Positions 3 to 18,476 of a stretch of 26,472 bases of DNA are shown here, piece after piece (within the stretch, counting starts at the first letter, position 1; each line of letters starts with the position of its first letter). Origin of the DNA: a virus. Its lineage: Duplodnaviria > Caudoviricetes. A program made the position numbers and the translations under genes. The stretch lies in IMG/VR virus record IMGVR_UViG_3300038393_000298, positions 1-26,472 of that record; one strand, 5' to 3'. The notes under the pieces were generated by a model, which was given only the letters and a program-made list of their open reading frames with translations, made no database searches and was not told the origin of the DNA.

Positions 3-3000
3 ACGTATACAAGAGAGATCGAAGGTAAGGTAAACACTAACACAACCGATATCGCTGCTATGAAGCTAGTGGATACCGCCATCAACACCGCACAAGCGAA
101 CATCCAACGCACTCTCACGCATAGCGGGGTTGTGGATTATAAATCAACAATTAACACCAATGGTTCAACAACATTGGGCGATATATCGGTATTTACAACC
201 GGAACTTGGTTAAATCGTTTCAAACTAGGAAAGACAAATTCATTTCTAAACGGATTCAAGGCACTAATCCAAGATACCAACAATAGCGATAGTGGGATAT
301 TTGTTGACCTTCCAGCACCACCAACCTTCGGCACCCGTGACGACCTCGTATTCCTAGAGGGCTATTTCCCTGCCAACGGTAATGGCGTGGATATGTCGTG
401 GAGGATCAGGACGGTTGCATGGGTGGATTTTGGGACTTACCAAGACGGAATGACACTTACTAATGGTGGTGCAATTGGTAAGTTCTATGTCGTAACTGCA
501 CAAGGAGGAAACGCAAGTCCAATAGCAACAAATGATACTAATATCGTTTGGAGTTATTTCAGATCAGCCAGCGTAGCATTAGGATTAACTGATTCTGGAC
601 TCTATGTTTGCGGTGACGGATCTAGTTCAGCAAAAACAACACTTAACACCCTTGACGGTTATTCCTACGCCATCCCATTATTCCGCATCAAACGCAGAAA
701 CAGCGGAGGATGGAATAAAAATACCAATTTATCGGGTGCTAGGGATTATGCTCAGTATTTTGGTTTGGGTGGTCAAGCTAATTTAACCACACAGGACATT
801 CAGAACAACGGAAAAACATTGGCACAAGTACAATCGGATTTTGTTGGGAAGACAGTTGATTTAAATGGAGCTTACGGTGATGGAAGTCCATATACGGTTA
901 TTAGTGCTGCAACATCTTCACAAGGTTCGCAATACACAACACTTACATTTGATAGGGCTGTTAAAACTGCATTTACTACAAGTACAACCGTAACGGTTAA
1001 ATCAGACCGTCCCGACTCTCTCTATTCCAACATCATCGATGCATCCGACATCATCGACCTTCGCCACCTTGCACGTTCATCCTACAATCTTCAATCGTTA
1101 CTCGAAGAAACATTGGATAAAGCCGAACGTGGTGAGTTGACTACGAAGGACACGAAAACAGCGTATAAAGAGCATTACAACTTGCAGAAAGCACCATTGG
1201 GATTGGCTCAGGATTTGCAGAGTGTGAACGTGAAGCGAGCAGATGGAACGGTTGTGGCTCTGAAGAATCTGTTGGGGATGATCGGTAATTGTGAGGATGC
1301 AAGTAAATTCTCAACAGCAGGGGTAACAGTTGCTTTAGATTCCAACATTAAAAAATACGGAAATAACTCTATTGCTTCCACTTCTACCGTTAGTGCTACT
1401 TCAGTGCAAACGAGATTTCCTGTTATTTCTATAGATCCATCTAAATACTATATTGTCGTAGCGGATATTTACAATTCAAATATGACAAGCACATTTTTAA
1501 AAGCATTGAGTGGAGATGGTGCAACTACTTTTAAAACAGAGTCCGCTATCACTACAACAGGTTCTTGGGTGACTCATTATATTAAACTTGCACCATCTGA
1601 TTTAACAGGACAAACAAGCATTAGACTTGATTCAGATGGCGTCGTTTCCGCAGTAGGACAAAAAATGAATACAGACGGAGCGAGAATCTACGAAATCGAC
1701 AGTACCACATACAACCTGATCGATGTAGATGCAAACTGGACAGGTGGCGATAAAATTTCCATTTTATTCCCTTATGTGGATTCGCCTGTGAACTTTGTGG
1801 AGAATTTGGTTCCTGATTTTGCTAGTGGTCAATGGACTTTAGGTGCAGGAGCGTCCATAGATTCGCCTTACAAATTAAAACATGCTGGAGGTTATACTTC
1901 TTCTGTAACAATCCCAGTTGTTGCAAGTGCCAAATATACAGTTTCAAGAGATACTGATCTTGCTAGTGGTTCAAATGCGAAGTTGGTTTTAACTTGGTTA
2001 GATTCCAGTGGTGCAACAATCTCAACAGAAGCTAACTATTGGGGAAATGACGTTTCTGGTAAAACATTCACTGCTCCGGCTAATGCAACTAAGTTGAAAA
2101 TTGAATGGACTACGATAAATAGCGGAACGTACACTCTAAGTAACTTGCAAATCGAACAAACATCTACTGCCAACACATTCGTCCCATTCGGCAGATACTA
2201 CATCCCTTACGATTACGCTGTCGGCACATCCAAAAACTACATCACAGAATCGTTCAACTCGCACAGACAGACGTTCTCGGATGCTCAGATTAGCGAGACT
2301 GTGACGGATCGAGTAGAAGCCTTGATGACACCGCAGAAGCATGTGACGGTGACTCAGGCTACAGCAGGGACTTGGGCTGTCAATGATACGATTAAGTTTA
2401 CATCGTACAATGGGGTAATTAGCGGGGTTATTGATAGTGATACGCAGTTTGCAACTATTAGTGTAGGTAATTCAGATAGCACACTCGTAGTAAGTGACGT
2501 TAGCAAACTAAGTGTAAATGACGTTGTCAACGTTATACTTAATGACTTGTCAGTTGGATGGTCTAGTTTAACCGTAACTGCAATTGATACCACGAACAGT
2601 AAGATAACATTAAGCGGAAGCAATAACTTTAATGTATCTAAGATTGTAGGAGGTTTTGTGGTCGAAACCACCACATCATCCTCACTCCCAACCGTAACAG
2701 CCACAGGCATAGTAGGAACATGGAGTGGACTTGGAACCAAAACAGCAACGTACACGATCACGACACCGCCAACTTCGAATCAAAGTGACATTTTATTCAA
2801 ATATAGTGTCAACTATCCGTTTGGCAAAGGACTCGCAAACTTGCCTGTCAACGTGGATTTGGTGGAAGTGAATGGGCAGAGACATGTGAGTGGTCAGACG
2901 GTAAGTGTTAAGGCGAATTTTGATGGTAAAACGGCTGGATCAACTGATTTGATTCCTCACACTGCTAAATTCAATAACAACTCAACATCGTTAGTTTCTC

Positions 3001-5267
3001 CTAGTGGTTCATGGACTGAATTTGGATCGGGTTATTCCACAATATCAGCACTAGATTCTAGTACAACAAATATTGCTTCTACTCTTGTCAGCGGTAACTA
3101 TGGTCAAGTATTATTCTCCTTCGACTTAATCCGAGCCATCGAGGACAAGTTCGGAGAAACCGCATTTGTGGGATGCTTGACTACTGCGGATAAGGTGGCG
3201 TGGCTTAAGAATAGTGCGAATGTGAGTGATATTTCAATTAGTTGGTATGGTTATGGCTCTGCTCCAAGTGGTGGTTCTTTAACTAACAAGGCGTATCTGA
3301 AGAGTTGGGCAAACGATACTACTAACTGGAATGGGAGTGCTACCCACAATAGTGCATCTGTCACATCCTTAACTATGTCAGGTGCTAATTATTATGGTGG
3401 TGCGTCATTTGCAAATAGAATGATTGACACTAACGGAATGATTTTCTTCCTTGCCTACGCAGATCCTAGTGATGGAGTAACCGCTTCGACCTTGTTCACC
3501 GATTATGTAGAGCTGTCAGTCACTCTAGCTACAGCAGAAACAGGCTACACCGTGTTCCAACCTGAGCAGCAAATGCCTGTTTTATCGGAGAATATGTTGA
3601 CAGCGAATCAAGCGTTTCCTGTGGATGTGAGTGGTTTTAGTGTAATTGGTTCATCTGTTTTATCTATAGATTCGCTAGGTGTACTAAAGGCAGATGCTTC
3701 TGCTAAGGGCGGTGCTGATGGATCAAGATGGGGTTTAACGCTTGATAACAGCACAGGAAAAGCAAGCTATCACACTTTCTCTGGTGAGTTTAAAGGGGTT
3801 GCAGGGAAATCGTATAGAATTTTCTTCTATGACGGAACAACAATCACTTATTTAATTAGTACATTAACAGCGACAGGAAATTGGCAAACGATTAATGCTT
3901 CCGCTATTCGAGCAAACACTAATCAATATATCCGTATTGACGACAACGGAGCAACTGGAGATACCACTTTCTATCTGCGTAAATTGAAATTAGAAGCAGG
4001 AAATAACCCTAATCCTACTTTTAGTGCAGGACGCAATAAAAAGAAAATTTTAACTGGATTGGGCAAACGTGCAGGAAGTATGACGGAGAATCCGATTCGT
4101 ATTTACTACAAATACGCTTCGACTTTCGATGCACCAAGCACATTCACGCAAGAGATCGATCAAGCTGGATATGATAGTTTAAGCAAGCAGGATGGCGTGT
4201 TGTATTCAAGGACAACCAGCACAGCAGGGCAATACGCTCAGATGTTGATTGAATATGATCCTAATAGCAATATGAGTTTGAAAGAGTTTAAAGCGATGTT
4301 GCGAAATCTGACCGCATCCGCAACGTTGTACGGTCAGGGGGATAATGCAGGAGTGTTGGCGAATGGGGCAACGACGAAATGGTGGGTCAACTCAACGTCA
4401 ACATGGACAGGTGGAACAGGTTCGTATAATAATACTTCAAGTTCTCCGTCTACAATCACAGTTACGGATGCAGGAGCAGGAAATGTAAATTACATCACGA
4501 AAGATCAAAAAATTTACATCCTAGTTCACAGCACATACCCTGCATCAGCAAGCAACGCAAGCTCACTTTTCGTGGATTACTGCAATTTGACGGTTTCTCT
4601 CAGCGACCAAGTGGATTTCGTTAAATCGAACATTTTAAAAGTAAATCCACAAACGAAAGAAATTAAGACGATGTTCCCTGCTATCTCTTATCGTTCGATT
4701 GGAAACGGTGGGGGAGTGGATCGGGTATCGTTGTATTATCGTTATGTCCCATGGCAGGGGGATAACACGCTAGTTCCTGACGCCATTGTTAAACGTCCAG
4801 ATTGGATGTACATCACATCTGAAGCATCCGGGAAAGCAGAAACGTTCTCAGGTGTCAACTATGATAAGTATAAGAACGTCATCAATAAGCTATTCGGTTC
4901 CTTGTACAGCGGAGGAGATTACACAGGACAGCGGTTAAGCACATCGGTTCCACAGGCGAATGAGAGCGTGACCCCATCGATTATGAGGGTGCCATTATCA
5001 ACTGGCTTAGAAGGAACCACATCGAGCTTTAAAGATGCCAAGACTGCATTATTAGATAGCGGAAGTGTCGCTTACCTAGTGACAGATCCAACGTTGATCA
5101 GCAGCGGTAAATTCGTGAACTTTGTGCCATTCTTAGTGTTGAAAAATAGCGAGGTCTATCTGGCGATTAAACACCGTACTTCTTCACTGGTGGCTGAAGC
5201 TGGTCAAGTGGGAAGTCAGGCAGTGTTGTTCAGAATCGACGGAAGACCGTTGGCAAAGGGGTTGTAA
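3..5267 (+). CDS. Large modular phage tail fibre / receptor-binding protein (5'-truncated by window edge)
   Basis: Frame is open from base 3 (TYTREIEGKVNTNTTDIAA) into the 1735-aa ORF at 60, so the true start lies upstream. Ser/Thr/Gly-rich beta composition, three 'xNLL/NLV/NML...' CBM-like jelly-roll modules and a duplicated ~190-aa domain. Followed by a tail chaperone-like gene and tail/lysis genes. Confidence 0.8.
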   Translation, partial: TYTREIEGKVNTNTTDIAAMKLVDTAINTAQANIQRTLTHSGVVDYKSTINTNGSTTLGDISVFTTGTWLNRFKLGKTNSFLNGFKALIQDTNNSDSGIFVDLPAPPTFGTRDDLVFLEGYFPANGNGVDMSWRIRTVAWVDFGTYQDGMTLTNGGAIGKFYVVTAQGGNASPIATNDTNIVWSYFRSASVALGLTDSGLYVCGDGSSSAKTTLNTLDGYSYAIPLFRIKRRNSGGWNKNTNLSGARDYAQYFGLGGQANLTTQDIQNNGKTLAQVQSDFVGKTVDLNGAYGDGSPYTVISAATSSQGSQYTTLTFDRAVKTAFTTSTTVTVKSDRPDSLYSNIIDASDIIDLRHLARSSYNLQSLLEETLDKAERGELTTKDTKTAYKEHYNLQKAPLGLAQDLQSVNVKRADGTVVALKNLLGMIGNCEDASKFSTAGVTVALDSNIKKYGNNSIASTSTVSATSVQTRFPVISIDPSKYYIVVADIYNSNMTSTFLKALSGDGATTFKTESAITTTGSWVTHYIKLAPSDLTGQTSIRLDSDGVVSAVGQKMNTDGARIYEIDSTTYNLIDVDANWTGGDKISILFPYVDSPVNFVENLVPDFASGQWTLGAGASIDSPYKLKHAGGYTSSVTIPVVASAKYTVSRDTDLASGSNAKLVLTWLDSSGATISTEANYWGNDVSGKTFTAPANATKLKIEWTTINSGTYTLSNLQIEQTSTANTFVPFGRYYIPYDYAVGTSKNYITESFNSHRQTFSDAQISETVTDRVEALMTPQKHVTVTQATAGTWAVNDTIKFTSYNGVISGVIDSDTQFATISVGNSDSTLVVSDVSKLSVNDVVNVILNDLSVGWSSLTVTAIDTTNSKITLSGSNNFNVSKIVGGFVVETTTSSSLPTVTATGIVGTWSGLGTKTATYTITTPPTSNQSDILFKYSVNYPFGKGLANLPVNVDLVEVNGQRHVSGQTVSVKANFDGKTAGSTDLIPHTAKFNNNSTSLVSPSGSWTEFGSGYSTISALDSSTTNIASTLVSGNYGQVLFSFDLIRAIEDKFGETAFVGCLTTADKVAWLKNSANVSDISISWYGYGSAPSGGSLTNKAYLKSWANDTTNWNGSATHNSASVTSLTMSGANYYGGASFANRMIDTNGMIFFLAYADPSDGVTASTLFTDYVELSVTLATAETGYTVFQPEQQMPVLSENMLTANQAFPVDVSGFSVIGSSVLSIDSLGVLKADASAKGGADGSRWGLTLDNSTGKASYHTFSGEFKGVAGKSYRIFFYDGTTITYLISTLTATGNWQTINASAIRANTNQYIRIDDNGATGDTTFYLRKLKLEAGNNPNPTFSAGRNKKKILTGLGKRAGSMTENPIRIYYKYASTFDAPSTFTQEIDQAGYDSLSKQDGVLYSRTTSTAGQYAQMLIEYDPNSNMSLKEFKAMLRNLTASATLYGQGDNAGVLANGATTKWWVNSTSTWTGGTGSYNNTSSSPSTITVTDAGAGNVNYITKDQKIYILVHSTYPASASNASSLFVDYCNLTVSLSDQVDFVKSNILKVNPQTKEIKTMFPAISYRSIGNGGGVDRVSLYYRYVPWQGDNTLVPDAIVKRPDWMYITSEASGKAETFSGVNYDKYKNVINKLFGSLYSGGDYTGQRLSTSVPQANESVTPSIMRVPLSTGLEGTTSSFKDAKTALLDSGSVAYLVTDPTLISSGKFVNFVPFLVLKNSEVYLAIKHRTSSLVAEAGQVGSQAVLFRIDGRPLAKGL

Positions 5268-5268
5268 C

Positions 5269-6225
5269 ATGAATATCATCATTGATCGTAATACAATGAA
5301 AGTGGCGGGCTTCGGCTCGCCTTCTTCTTTTCAATTCGAAGTAGCCAACGTAGAAAACATCAGCAAAGAAATCGTAGTCACGGAGCAAGTTCCGAAGACA
5401 ATCGACGGTAAAGTGTTGTACAGATTACCGCAGCCTGACAAAGAGATCGTGACGCCTGTTACTAGAACCGTAGAAACTATCGAAGAAAATGACCGTCCTA
5501 TCATCGTTAAAGAATCGAAGAAAGTCCCGCTACTCGACGCAAAAGGAAAACAAGTTACGTATCAGCCTATGGTATTCGACGAGGATGCGCAAGCGCAAAT
5601 TCCTAGCGGTAATCCTATCGCTTGCTTTACAACGGAAGAAGTTGACGTACACAAGACGGACAGCGAAGGTAATACGCTTTATTGGGTCGAGATAACAGAT
5701 GATGTTACCACATATGAACCGCAAGATGACGCAGAGATTACGGATGAGGATCCGAATTGGACGGAAGACCTCGAAGTTATCCTGGAAGATATTGACGTAG
5801 AAAAGACCGTTACTCTACTCGATTCTCCGAAAAGTTTCGATTATGAAGAAGTCGAACCGTCTCTTTCCACTCTACGTAAGATTAAGATCGCAGAGCTAAA
5901 CGTAGCTTGTAATAAAGCGATACTTAGCCGGTTTACATCGAATATCGACGGAGTGGATTACGAGTTTTCTTACGACCAGGAAGCGCAGAGTAACTTTAGC
6001 GGAGCCGGCCACGCATTTAGCAGAGGTTATACGACAGAGATCGAATGGACTGCACATAAAGACGGTGAAGATATTCGGATTATGCTAGATGCACAAAAAT
6101 TCGATGAAGTCGCTATCGCCGGTATGATTCATGTTAATTCGAATGTTACACGGTTCCGTAACGAGTTAATTCCGGCAGTAATGGGTGCTGCGACTGTATC
6201 CGAGATTATTTCGGTTGAGTGGTAG
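5269..6225 (+). CDS. Tail fibre-associated protein with C-terminal DUF4376-like domain (putative assembly chaperone)
   Basis: Starts 1 nt after the fibre stop. Acidic N-terminal part; C-terminus KIKIAELNVACNKAILSRF...YEFSYDQEAQSNF...IISVEW has the DUF4376-type pattern typical of genes next to tail fibres. Confidence 0.7.
   Translation: MNIIIDRNTMKVAGFGSPSSFQFEVANVENISKEIVVTEQVPKTIDGKVLYRLPQPDKEIVTPVTRTVETIEENDRPIIVKESKKVPLLDAKGKQVTYQPMVFDEDAQAQIPSGNPIACFTTEEVDVHKTDSEGNTLYWVEITDDVTTYEPQDDAEITDEDPNWTEDLEVILEDIDVEKTVTLLDSPKSFDYEEVEPSLSTLRKIKIAELNVACNKAILSRFTSNIDGVDYEFSYDQEAQSNFSGAGHAFSRGYTTEIEWTAHKDGEDIRIMLDAQKFDEVAIAGMIHVNSNVTRFRNELIPAVMGAATVSEIISVEW
5304..5331 (+). terminator. Intrinsic terminator-like hairpin inside the 5' end of the DUF4376-like gene
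   Basis: GGCGGGC-TTCG-GCTCGCC (cUUCGg tetraloop) followed by TTCTTCTTTT. Confidence 0.5.
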
Positions 6226-6227
6226 TG

Positions 6228-6440
6228 ATGAAGCAGTACGTATGGAGACTGCTAATCGCCATAGATCAACTGCTGAATACTTTATTTTTCGGAGATGAGG
6301 ACGAAACCATCTCGTCACGACTCGGTAAACGGATGCTAAAAGGAGATAAACTAGCAACGTTATTATGACGTTGTCTAAACTTGATCCAGGTGGATCACTG
6401 CGTTAAATCAATTGAGAAAGACGAAGGGGAGCCACTTTAG
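6228..6440 (+). CDS. Small phage protein (DQLxN...DETISSR family) with in-frame TGA at codon 47; candidate selenoprotein or recent nonsense pseudogene
   Basis: Absent from the ORF track. Manual translation: MKQYVWRLLIAIDQLLNTLFFGDEDETISSRLGKRMLKGDKLATLL*(TGA 6366-6368)RCLNLIQVDHCVKSIEKDEGEPL-TAG. The family-like C-terminus (DHCxKSIExDEG) continues past the TGA. The ORF fills the gap between the upstream stop (6225) and a terminator. Confidence 0.75.
6382..6397 (+). promoter_or_regulatory. Bacterial SECIS-like stem-loop
   Basis: TGATCC-AGGT-GGATCA perfect stem. The apical loop starts 19 nt after the in-frame TGA and has G in its second position followed by GU, resembling the AGGU loop of the E. 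coli fdhF SECIS. Confidence 0.55.
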
Positions 6441-6455
6441 GCTCCTTTTATTTTT
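6424..6455 (+). terminator. Rho-independent terminator
   Basis: AAGGGGAGCC-ACTTTA-GGCTCCTTTT followed by ATTTTT, overlapping the TAG of the small gene. Confidence 0.7.
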
Positions 6456-6473
6456 GGAAAGGAGGAGATACGT

Positions 6474-8669
6474 TTGAACTTTCCTATTGTATACGACAAG
6501 TTCGATACATCATACGTCGGATACGGTCTTGCAATATTAGACAATGCCAAAGACGTAAAAGTACGTGAGAAGTTAAACGGAGAGCATACGCTAGAGTTTA
6601 CGCTTCCTAGGGATGACGAAAAATGGTCCGAAGTACAAATCGATAACTTTGTCAAAGTTGACGAAAAGTTGTACATCATTCGCACATTGGACGAAGTACG
6701 AGATAATAATGGCCGCCTTCTATCTAACGTTCAGTGCGAAAGTATTATCTCGGAATTACTAGACGAGTATATCTCGTATTTTGAGCTAATCAACGTATCC
6801 GCTCAGTATGCGGTCGATACGTTTATCTCCGGAACTAGGTTTAAAGCCGACGCTACTAGAATAACGGTCAATAACGACATTGAAGTCGAAGACTGTACGC
6901 CAGTAGCTGCGATTAACAAAATGATTACAACGTGGAAATGCGAAGTGGAGTGTGCTGGACTTCCGGATGTTGATGGAAAAATTGAAATAACATTGCTTCC
7001 GCAGCGTGGGTCGGATAACGGAGTACAATTCCGCTATCGTAAGAATTTGAAGTCGATTAAGAAGACGTCAGACGGACGAGGAATCATTACACGCCTCTAT
7101 CCGATTGGTAAAGACGGTTTAGGTATAGAGTCCGTTAATAGCGGAGTTGCTTACTTGGACAGCGCCAGTATCGGAGCTTATCCACGTCCTAAGAAAGCTT
7201 CGAAGAAGTTTAACGACATTGACGATCCTACAGAGTTAAAGCAGGCAGGTATCGATTATCTTGCTACTGTAGATACACCAAAAGTCACGTATGATGTCGA
7301 TATTCTCGAGCTAAAAGCGTTGGCCGATTTTGGTTCAACAGAATCTTTCGATCTTGGCGACGTTATTCGAGTGATTGACGAAGAACTTGGAATCGATGTT
7401 GCCTGTCGCATCGTTGACTATGAGCGATACCCTTATGAGCCTACACGTTCAAAAGTTATACTCGCGAATTATCTAGATACTATCATCGATTACTTGGGAG
7501 AGTTAGAAGAGGCCAAGCGAGTGGTCGATTCTGTCACATACAAAAATAAAATTAATACGTACTGGCTCGACGGAGTTATTAACGTATTACAAAATAAGTT
7601 CAATTCTTCGCAATCCAATTGGTATACAGACGATAACGGAAATATTATTTTCGAAGCACAAGACGGATCTAGTGCGATGAAACTAGCCGGAGATGGCTTC
7701 GCTTTATCGAATGAAAAAGACGTCAGTGGTGCGTGGATTTGGCGTACTTTCGGAACGGGTTCAGGTATTACTGCAGACGAGATTAATGCCGGAATATTGA
7801 ACGCATCAGTCGTTAGGATATTGGCCGATATAGCCACTTCTATCGATGGTTCCGGGATTCATATTGCGAATGGAAATAGCGATCGGGTACGCATTGGTGA
7901 ATATTCGAGCGGTAAGTATGGAGTATTGGTTACGGACGGCACCGCTAACCAAGTCGAGTTAGGCGAGTATGAATCGGGCAAAGTCGGATTAAAAGCAGCT
8001 AATGGATCGTCTCGCGTAATTATAGACGGTACCAACGGGTTTAAGATTCAGAAGACAACGAACGGCGGAAGTACTTGGAGCGATCAGTTATATATCGACT
8101 CTAGCGGTACGATTCATTTAGTGGGCGGTGTTATTGACTGGAATAGTGTTAGTGCGCCAAGTGCTACACAGGTCGGAGCTTTATCTAGTGACTCGCCTAA
8201 GTTGACGTATATCGGCAGCGATGGTATTTACACCGGCACCCTAAGCGCGGATAGAATCAACGGTGGGACCATCAACGCAGACGTAATTAACGTTACGAAT
8301 ATCAATGCAGGAAATCTGAAAAACGGGACAACGCTTAACGGTCAACTTGTAAACATAACTAATTTAAACGCTAGTAATATTACATCCGGAACCATATCAG
8401 CGGATCGAATATCGACTAATATTTCGCAAGTAAATACACAACTACGATTAGGCTCTCCGGGACAAACGGGCCAGTCGATAATCATTAACGATAATTGTTC
8501 GATATCTAATGTGGGAGACGGTTTAAAAATTGGGACAATGGGAGCTATAACTTTCGCTGCTGGTAGCGGTGACGGTAACGTTCAGATTCTCGTAGGTCCG
8601 AGTACGTACTATACCGTAGCTACTCGGGAATGGGTGACTGCAAATGCAGGAACGGCTAAGTTCGGATAA
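6474..8669 (+). CDS. Phage tail spike / prophage tail endopeptidase-like (Prophage_tail/Tal) protein
   Basis: SD AAGGAGGAG and TTG start. Motifs GLAILDNA..VKVREKLNGEHTLEF, RYRKNLKSIKK, IITRLYPIGKDGL, DLGDVIRVIDEELGI, WIWRTFGTGSGITADEINAGILNA, plus C-terminal 'INAGxI / ISADRI' trimeric beta-helix repeats. Confidence 0.85.
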   Translation: MNFPIVYDKFDTSYVGYGLAILDNAKDVKVREKLNGEHTLEFTLPRDDEKWSEVQIDNFVKVDEKLYIIRTLDEVRDNNGRLLSNVQCESIISELLDEYISYFELINVSAQYAVDTFISGTRFKADATRITVNNDIEVEDCTPVAAINKMITTWKCEVECAGLPDVDGKIEITLLPQRGSDNGVQFRYRKNLKSIKKTSDGRGIITRLYPIGKDGLGIESVNSGVAYLDSASIGAYPRPKKASKKFNDIDDPTELKQAGIDYLATVDTPKVTYDVDILELKALADFGSTESFDLGDVIRVIDEELGIDVACRIVDYERYPYEPTRSKVILANYLDTIIDYLGELEEAKRVVDSVTYKNKINTYWLDGVINVLQNKFNSSQSNWYTDDNGNIIFEAQDGSSAMKLAGDGFALSNEKDVSGAWIWRTFGTGSGITADEINAGILNASVVRILADIATSIDGSGIHIANGNSDRVRIGEYSSGKYGVLVTDGTANQVELGEYESGKVGLKAANGSSRVIIDGTNGFKIQKTTNGGSTWSDQLYIDSSGTIHLVGGVIDWNSVSAPSATQVGALSSDSPKLTYIGSDGIYTGTLSADRINGGTINADVINVTNINAGNLKNGTTLNGQLVNITNLNASNITSGTISADRISTNISQVNTQLRLGSPGQTGQSIIINDNCSISNVGDGLKIGTMGAITFAAGSGDGNVQILVGPSTYYTVATREWVTANAGTAKFG

Positions 8670-8787: not shown

Positions 8788-10800
8788 ATGGCGTCCATTA
8801 CGTTAATATCGGCCACGCTAGATTATTCATTTTCACCTGTAGCTGTAGGAGTAACGTTCAGTACTTCTGGTGTGTCTGATGGGCAAACTGTTAATTTCCG
8901 ATTCTTTTTTCAAGGGGTTGGAAATGTCAACAATTACTCAGGGACATATAATGGCGGTGCAGCCAAAACAGTCTATTTTATACTTAGCGGAGTACCCGAT
9001 ACTTCACACTTAACGGTAGATGTTGTTGCAAGTACAAATAACTTCTCCACATACTCTAATTATGTAACAGCCACAAACGAAACCACTCCATCTTTCCCGA
9101 CAACAACATGGGACAATGGATACACACCAAGATTGAAAGACCAATATGTGCAAGAATGGAATGGATCAGGGTACACCCATTCCAATACTACGCAAGCCGG
9201 GAACTGTATTCCACAGGCTCTTACTTCTATGTTAGAAACGTTTTACTACAAAAAGTACGGCGTGAGCGGAGTTCGCTATTCAGTATCATGGATATTCGGA
9301 AACCGTTCATCTTCTGACATAGAAAGTAATGGCGGAATGATGATGGATGAAGCTCTTAGCCAATTACAAGCTGATGGAACACCTTTATTTAATGAATTAT
9401 CCGATCTGCCATACCCGGATAACATGATGTATTTCAACTGGGATGCAGGAGGATATACGAATACAGGCGCAAAAAATCGTGTCGCGAGTAAATATAGCGA
9501 CATTATCACGAATGCTAGGAAAAGCAGGATTGCTAGTTGGACGAAGTACAGTCCTGCACTATCTAATTTTTCAAGTCTAATTTCTGCGTTACAATCCAAT
9601 GGAGTTATCCTTGTACAACTTAGAGAAGCGTATAATTTTTGGACAGGAGATTTAGGTGCCAATTTTGAGGTAAAAAAGCCAGATGATTTTTCCGTTCCTA
9701 ATGATAATCACGATGTCATTATCCGTGGATGGAAGCAGATCAGCGGTCAATACTATTGGATTTGCCATAATAACTGGGGGTCTTGGTTCGGTAACGGTCA
9801 AGGCTATTTTTTATTACCTATCAATTATACAGGTATCGAGAACTACTGGACAGCAACCGAGAACATTACGACATTAACACTTCCAGTTCCAAACACTCCT
9901 ACTGATGCACCTATATTAGATACCGCAATGGATGGCGATGGCCGGTCTGGCGATACCTTATATGTTAAGTTTAACGGTGTATCCGGCGCCGATTCTTATA
10001 GTGTGAAAATCCGTAGAGGATATGATAATGCTACCACGTATGTAACAAGCAGTTTTACATCTGGTATTTATTGCGGTCACTTACAATATGGGGTGACTTA
10101 TTATATCAGTTATGCCGGAGTTAATTCGGCGGGAACAGGTGTTTATTCTACTGAAAATGCTGCAACTACCTTACCGCAGCCACCTACAATCAGTGGAACC
10201 ACGACACAGAGTACCATATCCATCACAGCAAGCATTGCATCTCCTGTCGGTAATTTTACGGAAATTCAAGTTGAACGTTACGATGCCAGCTCAAATTATA
10301 TAGACACGAAGTTCATATCTTTTGATGATTTTAACGCAGGGAACAAAACGGTCACATGGTCCGGATTAGGAGCAACTACAACTTATAAATTCAAAGCTAG
10401 AACGATGTTTACTGTCAGCAGTGTGAACTTGTACAGTAACTACTCATCCACTTCTACTCTTACAACCAGCAGCAGACCGGCTAACTTCTCCTGGACTACA
10501 TCAAAAGTTTCGGGGCAAGATTTCAATCTAACAGCTACAGAGTGGAATAGTTTCACATCTCGCATCAACCAGTTTCTAACGTATAAAGGGCAGCCAACGA
10601 TTTCATTCACAACAGCGCCATATACATCTAGTGACCGAACGTTTTACTATTGGATGTACAATCAAGCAGCAAATGCTTTTATTAACACGTTAAACACATA
10701 TACCAGTACGCCATATACTCACGGTACTGCATCGTCCGGGGGTATTATTTATGCGTACTTTTTGAACGACATGGTATCAGCTTTAAATAATATATCTTAA
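8788..10800 (+). CDS. Tail-associated protein with papain-like (C1) cysteine protease domain and FN3-like domains
   Basis: Catalytic-type motifs AGNC140IPQA, NH308DVIIRGW and WICHN328NWGSWFGNGQGYF. FN3-like segments (LQYGVTYYISYAGVNSAG; GLGATTTYKFKART). C-terminal RPANFSW...LTATEWNSF domain seen in Firmicute phage tail proteins. Lies between the tail spike and the lysis genes. Confidence 0.75.
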   Translation: MASITLISATLDYSFSPVAVGVTFSTSGVSDGQTVNFRFFFQGVGNVNNYSGTYNGGAAKTVYFILSGVPDTSHLTVDVVASTNNFSTYSNYVTATNETTPSFPTTTWDNGYTPRLKDQYVQEWNGSGYTHSNTTQAGNCIPQALTSMLETFYYKKYGVSGVRYSVSWIFGNRSSSDIESNGGMMMDEALSQLQADGTPLFNELSDLPYPDNMMYFNWDAGGYTNTGAKNRVASKYSDIITNARKSRIASWTKYSPALSNFSSLISALQSNGVILVQLREAYNFWTGDLGANFEVKKPDDFSVPNDNHDVIIRGWKQISGQYYWICHNNWGSWFGNGQGYFLLPINYTGIENYWTATENITTLTLPVPNTPTDAPILDTAMDGDGRSGDTLYVKFNGVSGADSYSVKIRRGYDNATTYVTSSFTSGIYCGHLQYGVTYYISYAGVNSAGTGVYSTENAATTLPQPPTISGTTTQSTISITASIASPVGNFTEIQVERYDASSNYIDTKFISFDDFNAGNKTVTWSGLGATTTYKFKARTMFTVSSVNLYSNYSSTSTLTTSSRPANFSWTTSKVSGQDFNLTATEWNSFTSRINQFLTYKGQPTISFTTAPYTSSDRTFYYWMYNQAANAFINTLNTYTSTPYTHGTASSGGIIYAYFLNDMVSALNNIS

Positions 10801-12351: not shown

Positions 12352-12540
12352 ATGGCGTTAATGAAAACGAAGTCAGTATCGTTCAACATCGAAACTGAGA
12401 TCGAAAAAGAATTATTAGCGTGGGCAACTAGCCAGCATATCGGGTTCAGTACCTATGTAAAAGCGCTCATCGAAGCGGATAAAAAGAGAAAAAGCCGACC
12501 TGTAATGGAAGGTCAGCTCCGCGAATGGAAGATAACGTAA
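12352..12540 (+). CDS. Ribbon-helix-helix (CopG/Arc-like) DNA-binding protein
   Basis: SD AAGGAGG. KSVSFNI beta strand followed by two helices (EKELLAWA; FSTYVKALIEAD). Confidence 0.7.
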   Translation: MALMKTKSVSFNIETEIEKELLAWATSQHIGFSTYVKALIEADKKRKSRPVMEGQLREWKIT

Positions 12541-12664
12541 GAAGGACGTAAATGGGCCAAAGTCACTGACGCATACCTGCCGTCAGTTTATGCGAGCCAT
12601 TCGGAAAAATTGCTAGTACGTCATATATGATTTAAAAAATATTTTCAAACGGAGTGATTACACC

Positions 12665-13066
12665 ATGAAAAAAGGAATGACGATTCGAGAGTTCCTTCAC
12701 CGCGAAGAAGTCACATTTTTCGAGAAAGCAAAACGCCACATCCAACGCAACAAATCCTTCTATATTACTGCCGCTGGTTACACCATCTTCTTTATCTACG
12801 CCTCCACAATCGACGCTTCCGCCGCAAGTTCACTCGAAATTGACCGTAAAGCCACCGCAATTTACAAGAAATTAGTTTCCGTTGGTAAATGGGTTGTTAT
12901 TATCAAAGCTGCGTTTGATGTCGTTCAAACCGCCACGTCTGGAGACTTTGCCGGAGTTAAAACAAAGTTAATCGGCTATCTAATCGTATTCTTAACTCTA
13001 CTCGGATTACCGTGGGCATTCGAGGAAATCCAAGGTCTATTTGAAGATAAAGCAGTTAACGGGTGA
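12665..13066 (+). CDS. Membrane protein, TrbC/VirB2 pilin-like
   Basis: Hydrophobic segment ending in an ASA cleavage-like site, then two TM helices separated by 'SGDFAGVKTKL', the layout of VirB2-like pilins. Confidence 0.55.
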   Translation: MKKGMTIREFLHREEVTFFEKAKRHIQRNKSFYITAAGYTIFFIYASTIDASAASSLEIDRKATAIYKKLVSVGKWVVIIKAAFDVVQTATSGDFAGVKTKLIGYLIVFLTLLGLPWAFEEIQGLFEDKAVNG

Positions 13067-13728
13067 TTAAGATGAAATTCGTAATTACAAGCGCATTCGG
13101 CGCAGTAGAAGCTATTCGATCCGGTATTAATCATAAAGGCATCGATCTCGCTATGAGTAAAGGTACACCGCTTAGAAGTATCACAAACGGGGTAGTCGAG
13201 CGAGTAACGGAGTACAGAGGTAATATAGGAAATGGTGTTATCATACGTGCTGAAGACGGTAGCCGACATATATTCGGTCATATGGATCGAGTTTCAGTTA
13301 ATACAGGCGATCATGTACACGCAGGTAGTTTTATCGGAACTAGCGGTAACAGTGGGTTCAGCACAGGTCCGCACCTCCACTTCGGTATTTTTAAAGACGG
13401 TCAATTCATCGATCCAACGCCAGTAATCGAAAAAGTTGACGCAATGGCTGGCGCTATGGGACCGTTTAAAGGTACTGGATTTATTACGGATCTCATCATT
13501 TCAAAAACGCGAGAACACGCAAAAGAAACGGCTACAGATATGCTTCTTGGCGTATGGGATGCGGTGACAGACATTCTATCGCAAGTAGAATACGGAGCAT
13601 TTTTAATAGGCACGGGAATACTCGTTATCTTGCGAGCTGTCGGCTTTAAGCATCCGTGGATTCGTCCTGGTGTACTACTAACGGTGCATGTGTTATTGAG
13701 ATTCTTATTAGGGGGTTTGTCGGTATGA
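13063..13728 (+). CDS. M23 family peptidoglycan endopeptidase with C-terminal membrane anchor
   Basis: HKGID (HxxxD), GNGVII, FGHM and GNSGFSTGPHLHF motifs; two C-terminal hydrophobic helices. Confidence 0.9.
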   Translation: MIKMKFVITSAFGAVEAIRSGINHKGIDLAMSKGTPLRSITNGVVERVTEYRGNIGNGVIIRAEDGSRHIFGHMDRVSVNTGDHVHAGSFIGTSGNSGFSTGPHLHFGIFKDGQFIDPTPVIEKVDAMAGAMGPFKGTGFITDLIISKTREHAKETATDMLLGVWDAVTDILSQVEYGAFLIGTGILVILRAVGFKHPWIRPGVLLTVHVLLRFLLGGLSV

Positions 13729-13871
13729 AAAGAATGTTATTCGGTGAAGATTCCAGAGACTATTTCAACAAACTATCGCCTGATGAACTGTTTAACTGGT
13801 GTGTAATGCTTTACGATTTGTGCGAGTGGTTAGGGGAACAAATCGATGAAATGAAGGAGGATGAAGAATAA
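13725..13871 (+). CDS. Small acidic hypothetical protein (48 aa)
   Basis: ATGA overlap with the M23 stop and SD GGGGGT. MKRMLFGEDSRDYF...EMKEDEE; start revised from 13656 in the ORF track. Confidence 0.55.
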   Translation: MKRMLFGEDSRDYFNKLSPDELFNWCVMLYDLCEWLGEQIDEMKEDEE

Positions 13872-14005
13872 TGGATTTTTGGATCATGAGTGCTTGTGCT
13901 TTATTAGGCATGTGGAGAAGTAATTACTGGATGAAAAAGCATACCGAAGATACAAAAATAGTTCTAGTGGAGAAGGTCGGAAAGAATGAAAAGCATCAAG
14001 TTTAG
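13871..14005 (+). CDS. Small hypothetical protein (44 aa) with hydrophobic N-terminus
   Basis: TAATG coupling and SD AAGGAGG. MDFWIMSACALLGMWRSNYWMKKHTEDTKIVLVEKVGKNEKHQV; overlaps the ATPase start. Confidence 0.5.
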   Translation: MDFWIMSACALLGMWRSNYWMKKHTEDTKIVLVEKVGKNEKHQV

Positions 14006-16400
14006 CGACTATATTAAAGTAATCAAACCGAACTACGTTTATCTTCGACTCAAGCCAGCTAACCATATCCGCAACAATTCTACAGATAAAATCGCAAAAG
14101 TAATCTCCTCATTGTACAAATCCTTCACGCAGCAAATTAAAGCAGACGAACACAAGGCGGTAAAAGTGTTAGGCAAGGAATTTATGATCGGTACCAAGTA
14201 TAACTTCGAAGTCAATTCAAAAGTATCCTATTTCGTCTATATCGAAAAGAAAAAGATCGAGTTCTACTTTATTGTTCCAGCGAATTGTCTTTCGATTATC
14301 AAAGAACGTATGACTGACGCATGGGGCGGTATCACAATTGAAGAAGTATCCGCCATCCCTACTTTTTCCGATAGCGCAATACAGAAGCAACTCGTTTATA
14401 AGAAGGAAGACGGATTATCTCTCGAAGTCAATAAGACAAATAACGATTTGCTCCGTTCCAACCTTAACGTCGTTGATGTCATGGAGGACGGTGACAAAAT
14501 CGGCATATTCTACAACTTCCTGCCGACATCGCAGTTCTCATGGCCGAGTGCTTATCGTAATACCATCGAAAAGGTTAAGCGTGGGATCCCAACTGACCGC
14601 GATAAATTCGACTTGTGGTTCGCGTTTAAGTGGTTGATAGCGGAAGTTAACTCAACGTTAAATGGGATCGCTGAATCATTCGGATCTTCTAAAAAGAAAG
14701 ATGAATCAACCAGCCTTCTCGAAACGGCATTACAGCGTATGAATGGCGGTAAGGAAATCAGCGAGAGTACCAAGCGAAAAGCATCGTCAACTATAGTAAA
14801 CACTCAAATTGCGTTAGTATCCGAAAGTAAAGAGAAGTCTCGCGAGTATAACAACATGCGATCGCTGGTGCAGTCATTTGACGCAATCAGTGGTGATAAT
14901 TATCTAATCGCCAAGCCGTTAAAGAAAAAGATAGATTATACCGCATTATCGATCGGCGGCGAGATCAATAAAACTAGCGCCGAAGAATGCAACAACTTTA
15001 TAGCATTACCTGGACGTGAGTTACTAGAGCAATACGATTTTATTGAAAAGATCGAAACAAAAGAAACACAAGTTCCGGAGGATTTACGAAAAGGAAAATT
15101 CAGAATTGGCGTCAACGCTTATAGAGGGATGCAACAATTAGCTTACCTCTCCACAGATTTTGAATACCAACAGTTGCCACTAATCCTCATCGGACCACAA
15201 AGAGCAGGGAAGTCAACTCTAATAGGAAATCTTTGTTATGATGCTATAAAAGCTGGAGAATGTACTATTATCTTTGATTACATCGGGAACTGCGAATTAA
15301 GTGGCGAAGTTTCAGAATTATTTTCTTCAGATAAGATTTTAAATATTGATTGTGATAATTTTAGTACCATGCAAGGACTTGGCTATAATGAGGTTGGCAT
15401 GAGCGACGATGCAGACATTCAATACGATAACGCTAAGAAGCAGACGACACAATTAACCACACTAATAAACTCAGTGAATGTAGATGACAGTCAATTATCC
15501 GCTAGGATGGAGCGTTATTTAGAATCTGCCAGTAATGCTGTATTCTTACTCGGAGGGCCGATTAGAGACGTATTTACAGTGCTACAAAATCATCAAGTCA
15601 GACACTCGTATTTGAATCAGATACCCAAAGCACAACAAGAAAATATGGAAGAGTACATTACCGCACTTCAAGAATTAGATGAACTTAGCAAAGATGGAGA
15701 CTTAATAGGCACCAAGATCCACCTAGTTAGCGGTATTATCGACCGTCTCAATAAGCTTAAGAAAAATACGTACCTAGAAAAGATGCTAAAGAAAGATACA
15801 GCAAATAATATTAATCTTGTTACAGAGATGCAGAAAAATCAGTTGATTTGCTTACGTATGCCAGAAGTTATGTTTTCCACGGATGGCGAGCGCGATATAT
15901 ACACGACTTATTGGTTAACTAAGATATGGATGGCGCTACAAATTAGAAAAGCTCAACTGAAAGATCGAAAGCTATTTACGAAGTGCAATCTAATAATCGA
16001 TGAGTTGTACCAAGTTGAAAACACTGAAAAATCTCTGTCTAAGATTATTTCACGTCTCGCTAAGTTCGGACTTAAGCCGATTATCTCATGCCACTACTTG
16101 AACCAAATCAAGTATATCCGTGAAGAGTTGCGGTCGGCCAACGCCAGCTACATGCTAATCGCTGGTTGCGATAAGAAGAATTTCCACGAATTATCGAGCG
16201 AGCTTTATCCATTCGAAGAGTCCGATCTGCTTAAGCTACCACGTTATCACAGCATGAACCTCATCAAGAATAAGACCGGTTACGCACGGTTCATAACGAA
16301 GCTTCCGAAGCCAGTGTCGGTATTCGGTAAGCAGAAGCGGATTAAGGTTAAAGCGTCGATAAAATCGCTAGTACCATACAGACGGAAGCCTGCGCTATGA
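13986..16400 (+). CDS. Large P-loop ATPase of the VirD4/TraG-VirB4-HerA-FtsK superfamily
   Basis: Walker A GPQRAGKST, IIFDYIG, Walker B LIIDELYQ, and the 'RLAKFGLKPIISCHYLNQI' motif equivalent to the RKxG..hhhsQ motif of coupling proteins. Confidence 0.75.
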   Translation: MKSIKFSDYIKVIKPNYVYLRLKPANHIRNNSTDKIAKVISSLYKSFTQQIKADEHKAVKVLGKEFMIGTKYNFEVNSKVSYFVYIEKKKIEFYFIVPANCLSIIKERMTDAWGGITIEEVSAIPTFSDSAIQKQLVYKKEDGLSLEVNKTNNDLLRSNLNVVDVMEDGDKIGIFYNFLPTSQFSWPSAYRNTIEKVKRGIPTDRDKFDLWFAFKWLIAEVNSTLNGIAESFGSSKKKDESTSLLETALQRMNGGKEISESTKRKASSTIVNTQIALVSESKEKSREYNNMRSLVQSFDAISGDNYLIAKPLKKKIDYTALSIGGEINKTSAEECNNFIALPGRELLEQYDFIEKIETKETQVPEDLRKGKFRIGVNAYRGMQQLAYLSTDFEYQQLPLILIGPQRAGKSTLIGNLCYDAIKAGECTIIFDYIGNCELSGEVSELFSSDKILNIDCDNFSTMQGLGYNEVGMSDDADIQYDNAKKQTTQLTTLINSVNVDDSQLSARMERYLESASNAVFLLGGPIRDVFTVLQNHQVRHSYLNQIPKAQQENMEEYITALQELDELSKDGDLIGTKIHLVSGIIDRLNKLKKNTYLEKMLKKDTANNINLVTEMQKNQLICLRMPEVMFSTDGERDIYTTYWLTKIWMALQIRKAQLKDRKLFTKCNLIIDELYQVENTEKSLSKIISRLAKFGLKPIISCHYLNQIKYIREELRSANASYMLIAGCDKKNFHELSSELYPFEESDLLKLPRYHSMNLIKNKTGYARFITKLPKPVSVFGKQKRIKVKASIKSLVPYRRKPAL

Positions 16401-17443: not shown

Positions 17444-18211
17444 GTGGCGATAACTATTTGTATGGCGGTTCAAAAGGGTGGAGTCGGTAAGACTACGACT
17501 TCGGCCATCACATCACATCTCCTGGCGAAAGAATCACGGGTACTAGCGGTAGACTTCGATTCTCAAGGCAATCTTACACAATTCCTTACGCAGAGAAACA
17601 TCTACGATTTTGAAGGTCGCACCGCACTCGAAGCTTGCAAAGAGAAGGATCCGCGTCCATATATCTATCGTATAACGGACAACCTTCACATATTACCGGC
17701 AGAGGACTTTTTATCGTTACTGGCTCGGTATCTATACGATGAGTACCGCGGTAATAAGTCGCTACTGCTGAGGGAAACGTTAGCGGTCGTTAAAGATGAT
17801 TACGATTACATTGTTATAGACTTACCGCCAAATCTCGGAGAGCAGACGGTTAATGGGTTGGCAGCTTCAGATTATGCTGTTATCATGCTGCAGAGCGAGC
17901 CGTTTTGCTATGATGCAGTCGATAGGTTCGTCGAGTTCCTTATCGAGATTCAGAAAAATGCGAATCCGGATTTGAGGCTTGCCGGTATATTAACGTCCAT
18001 GCTCGACACCAGGGCGTCACTTGATAACGGAATCCTTGATCGAGCGAGAAGTACATACGGAGATATTGTCTTTAATACAACGATTAAGAGGCGAACTCGC
18101 TTGAAGGAGTTCAGCGTTAGTGGTGTCATTGAATCGACGAAGGCCGACCGTGATGCGCTAGAGCAATATTACCAATTCGTAGAGGAGCTGAAGCAACGTG
18201 TCCAATCGTAA
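17444..18211 (+). CDS. parA: ParA/Soj family partition ATPase (type Ib)
   Basis: Deviant Walker A QKGGVGKTT, VLAVDFDSQGNLT, YDYIVIDLPPNLG; no N-terminal HTH. Confidence 0.93.
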   Translation: MAITICMAVQKGGVGKTTTSAITSHLLAKESRVLAVDFDSQGNLTQFLTQRNIYDFEGRTALEACKEKDPRPYIYRITDNLHILPAEDFLSLLARYLYDEYRGNKSLLLRETLAVVKDDYDYIVIDLPPNLGEQTVNGLAASDYAVIMLQSEPFCYDAVDRFVEFLIEIQKNANPDLRLAGILTSMLDTRASLDNGILDRARSTYGDIVFNTTIKRRTRLKEFSVSGVIESTKADRDALEQYYQFVEELKQRVQS

Positions 18212-18476
18212 AGCGGACTTATTAAGCGATTTAATCAAGCCGAGAAACCCAATCGAGGGAGTAAGCGATAGTTCAAACGCTCATACGAGCGAACCTTCGA
18301 ATACTCAAACGGTCATTTATATAAACGGTAGTGATGACGAGCGAAAGCGTAGATACTCGTTTGATCTTCCGGATTCACTACATCTACAGCTTAAGATACA
18401 TGCGGCATCACAACGGAAAACCATGTCAGATATCGTTGAAGAGGCATTGCGTCAGTACTTAACGTCGTCCAAATAG
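18198..18476 (+). CDS. ParG-like RHH centromere-binding partition protein
   Basis: Overlaps parA. Disordered N-terminus, then RYSFDLPDSLHLQLKIHAASQRKTMSDIVEEALRQYL (RHH). Confidence 0.8.
   Translation: MSNRKADLLSDLIKPRNPIEGVSDSSNAHTSEPSNTQTVIYINGSDDERKRRYSFDLPDSLHLQLKIHAASQRKTMSDIVEEALRQYLTSSK
18270..18327. repeat. parS-like 8-bp periodic array inside the RHH gene (copy 2)
   Basis: AGTTCAAA CGCTCATA CGAGCGAA CCTTCGAA TACTCAAA CGGTCATT TATATAAA CG; contains CGCTCATACGAGCG. Confidence 0.5.

Follow-up and report, generated by a model that had tools for sequence, protein, structure and literature searches.

The small gene at positions 6228-6440 of this viral DNA raises the question of whether a phage can encode a selenoprotein. 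Its frame of 70 codons opens with ATG at 6228, or alternatively with an in-frame GTG at 6225, runs into a TGA at codon 47 and continues to a TAG at 6438-6440. The window, meaning the whole stretch of 26,472 bases that was analysed, is a single virus record whose genes for tail, lysis and replication are those of a phage of Bacillota type, and the small gene lies among the following features.

3-5267, plus strand: large ORF open at its 5' end, likely a tail fibre or receptor-binding protein judging by its position (no family match)
5269-6225, plus strand: upstream gene with DUF4376, a Tfa-type tail-fibre chaperone domain (PF14301, E 6e-10; phrog_1348)
6228-6440, plus strand: predicted selenoprotein gene of 70 codons, phrog_3342 (ORF, profile match, predicted four-helix structure)
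6366-6368, plus strand: in-frame TGA, codon 47, predicted selenocysteine (Sec) codon aligned to a conserved Cys (homologue alignment)
6382-6397, plus strand: predicted bacterial SECIS with a 6-bp stem and an AGGU loop at 6388-6391 (hairpin conservation, covariation)
6396-6401, plus strand: codons of His57 and Cys58, the latter being the presumed partner of residue 47 (homologue alignment, co-loss)
6424-6449, plus strand: stem and T-run resembling an intrinsic terminator, which holds the true stop TAG 6438-6440
6474-8669, plus strand: downstream gene for a tail protein of the prophage-endopeptidase type (PF06605, PF18994)

The layout given in a preliminary description of this DNA stands: a single internal TGA interrupts a frame that stays open after it, and the frame ends inside the terminator-like stem, one of five such sites in the region where 1.1 are expected. 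The same holds for two further statements, that the window lacks sel genes (none among the 27 ORFs of this partial phage record in a Pfam scan) and that TGA is a normal stop elsewhere, closing genes at 13066, 13728 and 16400. No tRNA gene and no Rfam family was found in the window. Some phages use reassigned stop codons, and the internal TGA might in principle reflect such a genome-wide reassignment (code 4 or 25) or an assembly error. However, TGA ends ordinary genes of the window and also closes long ORFs in G001-G003, and a contig from run X2, which belongs to a study other than that of the possible source run X1, covers 6200-6470 with 0 differences to the window. The TGA is therefore not an assembly error, and with genome-wide recoding also ruled out by the stops elsewhere, both explanations have a negligible probability.

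With the TGA read as a sense codon, residues 1-66 of the protein align to positions 7-75 of the 90-position profile of phrog_3342 (E 5.5e-19), a full-length match across the TGA to a family whose function, as for phrog_34710 and phrog_23985, is not assigned. The difference is that most members of phrog_3342 have Cys47 and many have a C-x2-C upstream of it. No Pfam model matched the 70-residue protein, and no NCBIfam family matched it (P0001) at E up to 1. The conserved motifs of the phrog_3342 relatives are DQ-x2-N, DETxSSR and HC, and the acidic and His residues are nearly invariant in the family. Among 308 homologous database proteins 287 are full length and 21 end early. Column 47 is Cys in 246 of the full-length homologues, while His57 is kept in 285 and Cys58 in 265. 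The proposal that the UGA occupies a conserved Cys codon thus agrees with the alignment; the family pattern given in the preliminary description was correct in having a Cys followed by H-C at this position, but its spacing, C-x-x-L-x(5)-H-C, was not, the actual pattern being C-x2-L-x6-H-C. Trp is found at column 47 in 0/287 pairwise alignments; three cases in a MAFFT alignment disappeared under pairwise alignment and were rejected as artefacts.

The proteins that end early point to the same codon. By pairwise alignment 20 of the 21 stop at position 46-47, at the codon before Cys47, and one stops at 41; these counts come from a profile built from truncated forms, and most of the stubs are represented by their protein sequence only. 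All 15 early-ending proteins in the MAFFT alignment end at column 46. The 20 stubs include that of the window itself and those matching L001 and L134.

The TGA recurs in divergent relatives. In 80 viral loci, codon 47 is TGC or TGT in 69, TGA in seven and another codon in four, the seven TGA loci representing three distinct sequences that are 64-71% identical to the query. In total, six distinct TGA alleles are available as DNA (the window, L001, L003, L004, L096 and L134), and the five beyond that of the window are 52-73% identical and have the TGA at the same codon. Together with the identical independent contig, these alleles mean that the TGA is neither unique to this genome nor a read error, either of which the preliminary description had named as a reason to give up a Sec codon. 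L096 was obtained with a viral TGA pattern (8 family members in 15 matches) and L134 with a metagenome TGA pattern (1 family member in 42 matches); in both patterns the TGA and the downstream H-C motif were fixed and the loop was left free. Two more TGA alleles in register were found at loose contig ends in soil and rhizosphere runs (X2/X4 and X3), and no new one was found among the 39 loci of the P0051 scan.

An unbiased scan with TGH, which admits TGA, TGC and TGT alike, covered 27 of the 64 parts of IMG/VR and gave 121 matches. The automatic family test was passed by 116, comprising 113 Cys and 3 TGA forms, and the five others were dropped, two of them being Cys forms by eye. In IMG/VR, about 3 in 100 copies have both the TGA and the hairpin. 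Control patterns with TGA at Cys58 gave three matches and those with TAA or TAG at codon 47, which were one base stricter, also gave three, with no family member in either case. A scan of genomes with alignment A1 found two loci, in Cupriavidus and Roseivirga, and none in Bacillota; the first metagenome scan found no relative among 134 stretches, and a search for 'shorter' proteins of the family returned nothing. In one IMG/VR locus (L279) the phrog_3342 gene is present in two tandem copies, 234 nt apart and both with Cys.

The hairpin TGATCC-AGGT-GGATCA (6382-6397), whose loop is separated from the TGA by 19 nt, had been proposed as a SECIS, and its conservation with compensatory changes only in TGA alleles had been suggested as a check. 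The alleles bear this out. In every one of the six distinct TGA alleles, positions +20 to +22 read AGG and at least five of six pairs form in the same register, with a constant geometry of a 4-nt AGGN loop, 6-7 pairs and a distance of 19 nt. AGG is present in only one of 48 distinct Cys alleles, there with 4/6 pairs. In the unbiased scan (103 distinct sequences) loop and stem occur together in 3/3 TGA and 0/100 Cys alleles, nine of the latter having the stem only and one the loop only. Changes on both sides that preserve pairing are found at three of seven pairs, and 88% of cells are paired compared with 24-62% in slid registers of the alignment. The covariation score was reached by none of 500 shuffles, a control that ignores relatedness, and RNAalifold finds the same stem unaided.

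Given the residues of each allele and the codon usage of the window, the chance of loop and stem together is 0.005-0.038 per allele, and the hairpin codons have diverged less at synonymous sites (0.39) than the codons elsewhere (0.87-0.95). The arrangement also exceeds chance, as only one of the 822 TGA triplets in the window, codon 47 of the small gene, is followed by an AGG hairpin at 19 nt; when three related phage records are added, 5 of 5082 triplets pass and four of these five are the small gene.

The folding energies are more mixed. The hairpin alone has -6.7 kcal/mol, and five of the six alleles are at or below -7.5 kcal/mol, the level used as a criterion for a bacterial SECIS, in the 45 nt after the TGA (window -7.9); L004, at -6.5, misses this level at 40-50 nt. 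Speaking against the hairpin, the naked fold of the whole of 6360-6440 (81 nt) has a different minimum-energy structure (z 0.57). In a context of 60 nt the probability of the two loop-closing pairs is 0.87 for the window, and the pair probabilities in L004 and L096 are 0.39-0.41. A covariance model of the six alleles, run against 59 sources, recovered those alleles strongly, which is circular for the six, and five Cys alleles weakly. One Cys allele, L020:1639-1683 (the same gene as L081, in a Cupriavidus prophage), has an AGGC loop on a bulged stem at the SECIS position, which may be left over from a former Sec form or have arisen by chance from its FQADH codons. Another Cys form, L259, has an AGG loop with 4/6 pairs.

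The region behind the TGA is constrained as protein. Codons 48-67 have a pN/pS of 0.31 and 29 codons ahead of the TGA one of 0.30, showing that the frame after the TGA is under purifying selection to the same degree as the frame before it. In all six alleles the frame is open for 23-26 codons beyond the TGA, with stops in both other frames; the codons there keep His-Cys and Glu-x-Asp-x-Gly, and the true stops are all TAA or TAG. A true stop at the TGA, with the 46-residue stub as the product or the gene as a pseudogene and the hairpin serving otherwise as a pause or processing site, is very improbable in view of this constraint and of the missing nonsense allele at Cys58. What could speak for it is that TGY becomes TGA by one base change, that TGA ends ordinary genes in these phages and that one origin for all alleles is not rejected. 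The selection on the frame would also be explained if a near-cognate tRNA (Trp or Cys) read through the UGA with aid from the hairpin and with no selenium involved, and hairpins 3' of stops can stimulate read-through. However, Trp is never found at column 47 among the full-length homologues, the codon is TGA only and never TAA or TAG, and the invariant feature, an apical loop rich in G at the distance expected of a SECIS, fits the bacterial model in the literature, so that this explanation is also improbable.

The reading preferred here is that the small gene represents a new selenoprotein family of Bacillota phages in which codon 47 is a predicted Sec codon decoded by the SelB of the host, and on the sequence evidence its probability is put at roughly 0.88. 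Host machinery aside, the standard computational criteria for selenoproteins appear to fit, namely the pairing with Cys, the recurrence, the tie between hairpin and TGA, and the selection past the TGA. By analogy with the known bacterial pathway, host SelB-GTP-Sec-tRNA would bind the AGGU loop and UGA47 would be read as Sec, while a cell without SelB decoding would produce a 46-residue stub lacking His57-Cys58.

In phylogenetic trees the TGA alleles fall in two groups among the Cys forms, requiring two to three changes, and a single TGA clade is not rejected (AU p 0.556). Given this possible common origin and the relatedness of the alleles, the counts do not stand for six independent events. 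The carriers, with the morphotype read from ORF lists, include a myovirus-like phage with a serine recombinase as well as sipho-like proviruses, and these differing phage types imply that the gene moves between phages. L134 (2-3100) is a small remnant behind a host guaA with an N-terminal integrase fragment and fibre-like, XkdW/XkdX-like and DUF4376-like genes. The TGA, hairpin and frame are intact in it, and its setting of guaA and integrase fragment is as in an integrated remnant.

With no sel gene found in the window, itself a partial phage record, the Sec machinery would presumably be supplied by the host. tRNA-Sec is absent from 4/4 partial phage records, which is what supply by the host would predict. 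Among named phages and plasmids the best matches are distant Bacillota elements with 36-45% identity, and comparison of the guaA fragment beside L134 with plasmids was uninformative. A tRNA-Sec model passes the cut-off in the Cupriavidus genome, but likewise in 5 of 14 control genomes. A supplement of PMC5029168, read here as its list of organisms that use Sec, has entries for Bacillus, Alicyclobacillus, Brevibacillus, 17 Paenibacillus, Clostridium and Desulfosporosinus, and in rows 266-282 of its file 3 the 17 Paenibacillus genomes have zero known selenoproteins. A Sec-competent host for the TGA phages is thus plausible, and uncatalogued families, including those borne by prophages, could fill part of the Paenibacillus gap.

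Compared with bacterial genes decoded through SelB and a SECIS (the model of Zhang and Gladyshev as given in the accessible text of PMC13188914), the small gene has a UGA at a Cys column, a hairpin inside the gene whose small loop contains G and lies 19 nt further on, and systematic truncation at the UGA in protein databases. The hairpin of SaoC from Gram-positive bacteria, with a 7-bp stem and a GGU loop (accessible text of bioRxiv 10.1101/2022.07.06.499078), also resembles the element described here. In contrast to the bacterial genes, this one is phage-encoded, lies in a virion-assembly module and does not belong with the thioredoxin-fold UxxC/CxxU oxidoreductases: the model is all-helical, and neither +3 nor -3 is a conserved Cys in the six alleles. 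No recognisable entry for it occurs among the 119 families in Table 1 of PMC13188914 as available.

The poxvirus glutathione peroxidases of molluscum contagiosum and fowlpox viruses similarly borrow the Sec machinery of the host for a viral gene, and in fowlpox the SECIS is within the coding sequence (available portion of PMC8310308). These are captured host enzymes with a eukaryotic SECIS, whereas the family found here is of phage type, has a SECIS of the bacterial kind and lacks any known enzyme fold. The poxvirus enzymes are the only viral selenoproteins named in that portion of the paper. The word 'phage' is absent from the accessible text of PMC13188914, PMC12013277 and PMC13326102, among them two catalogues of prokaryotic selenoproteins from 2026. 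A tRNA-Sec was called by tRNAscan in Basilisk-like phages, with no selenoprotein, in the accessible part of PMC6145125. No phage selenoprotein was found by full-text searches for phage or viral selenoproteins in the literature covered, which included few subscription papers and lay outside the BSepDB tables and bioRxiv supplements, so a prior mention is possible.

Codon 47 is very likely a real Sec codon, and the case would thereby combine a known recoding mechanism with an uncatalogued protein family and an unusual carrier. If true, it is one of the first phage selenoproteins, and it means that a phage has put bacterial Sec recoding to use in its own protein family, one located in a morphogenesis module rather than in metabolism. 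It would also add to the selenoproteome a family that gene callers cut at residue 46. The family provides Cys and Sec versions of one 70-residue protein that arose in nature, along with a compact, naturally covarying Gram-positive SECIS on which SelB recognition can be studied. It also raises the possibility that phage propagation is limited by selenium or by the sel genes of the host.

The likely partner of residue 47 is Cys58. This residue is lost in 19 of 40 homologues without Cys47 and in 2 of 245 that keep it, in sequences that are not independent, and this co-loss suggests that Cys47 and Cys58 are a functional pair; both cysteines are lacking in 19 of 285 homologues. An extra C-x2-C, four and seven residues upstream of position 47, is present in 101 of 245 Cys forms. 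The last nine residues of 14 of 15 stubs contain no Cys, and L004 alone among the six TGA alleles keeps one; the TGA alleles have thus mostly lost the upstream Cys that many Cys forms carry. A U-x-C redox or metal site, as first suggested for this protein, was rejected, as Cys49 is present in only two of the six TGA alleles. The pair U47-C58 is likelier, and a selenenylsulfide or thiol-exchange centre of Sec47 and Cys58 would then replace the Cys47-Cys58 pair of the relatives.

In an AlphaFold2 model, with U modelled as C, the small protein is all-helical (mean pLDDT 94.1), with four predicted helices at residues 2-19, 28-37, 41-51 and 57-60. The predicted fold matches uncharacterised phage proteins in BFVD, and a Cys homologue (P0004) leads only to unnamed viral clusters in the ESM Atlas. 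A PDB sequence search returned no solved fold for the small protein, Foldseek gave 0 matches and the best VIA Z was 2.9; this lack of a structural match does not show that the fold is novel.

The neighbouring genes give some indication of the role. The stop of the DUF4376 gene (TAG 6223-6225) abuts the start of the small gene at 6228, which suggests that the two are translationally coupled. The upstream gene has DUF4376 or phrog_1348 in all five TGA contexts tested (the window, L002, L009, L096 and L134). Across the whole scan of upstream genes, from which 10 of 50 automatically picked ORFs were left out as short or partial, 15 of 42 have one of these two. Seven further upstream genes match phrog_2618, and five of those align with a similar C-terminus. 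The accessible text of PMC7882524 describes DUF4376 as the conserved C-terminal assembly domain of TfaMu that mediates fibre assembly. The upstream gene here has the same domain at its C-terminus, but the TfaMu modules are described there as fibre and chaperone only, and a small Cys/Sec partner is not among their genes. Gene order therefore suggests that the small protein may act as a helper of the DUF4376 chaperone, and the joint claim that it does so with a Sec47-Cys58 centre is put forward tentatively.

A selenoprotein of another kind might also be encoded, a metal-binding or catalytic mini-protein using Asp13, Asp25, Glu26, Sec47, His57, Cys58 and Glu63 that is a passenger of the tail module unrelated to fibre folding. 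Its acidic and His residues are nearly invariant, the extra C-x2-C of 101 Cys forms could complete a zinc site, and some homologues adjoin non-tail genes, at least six of those scanned sitting behind terminase, HNH, portal, capsid, helicase or transglycosylase genes. The TGA alleles have dropped the C-x2-C, however, which argues against a four-ligand metal site, and the linkage to the DUF4376 gene spans myo- and sipho-like phages, making the passenger role rather unlikely. The role of chaperone helper can be extended to a phage-born family without cellular counterpart, in which temperate phages of soil Bacillota would have evolved their own SECIS in a tail-fibre assembly gene and swapped a second Cys pair for one Se-S centre, with tail-fibre maturation tied to the Sec pathway of the host and to selenium, as a host-range or nutrient gate on the production of virions. 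This extension is speculative and quite unlikely as a whole, and the selenium- or host-dependent switch suggested in the preliminary description is likewise speculation.

The tail module of the window also contains a 670-aa protein with a papain-family (Peptidase_C1) domain at 8788-10800. In G002 and G003 the gene immediately after the TGA gene is also papain-like, but smaller (L089:6249-6989). The proximity of a thiol protease to a putative Se/S protein may be of relevance. After the lysis genes, the block at 12352-16400 holds a small DNA-binding gene, a membrane protein, an M23 peptidase and an 804-aa ATPase. G001 and G002 contain similar blocks, and clostridial plasmid proteins are about 45% identical to the ATPase. 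A ParA gene paired with a ribbon-helix-helix gene at 17444-18476 suggests that the phage may be maintained as a plasmid.
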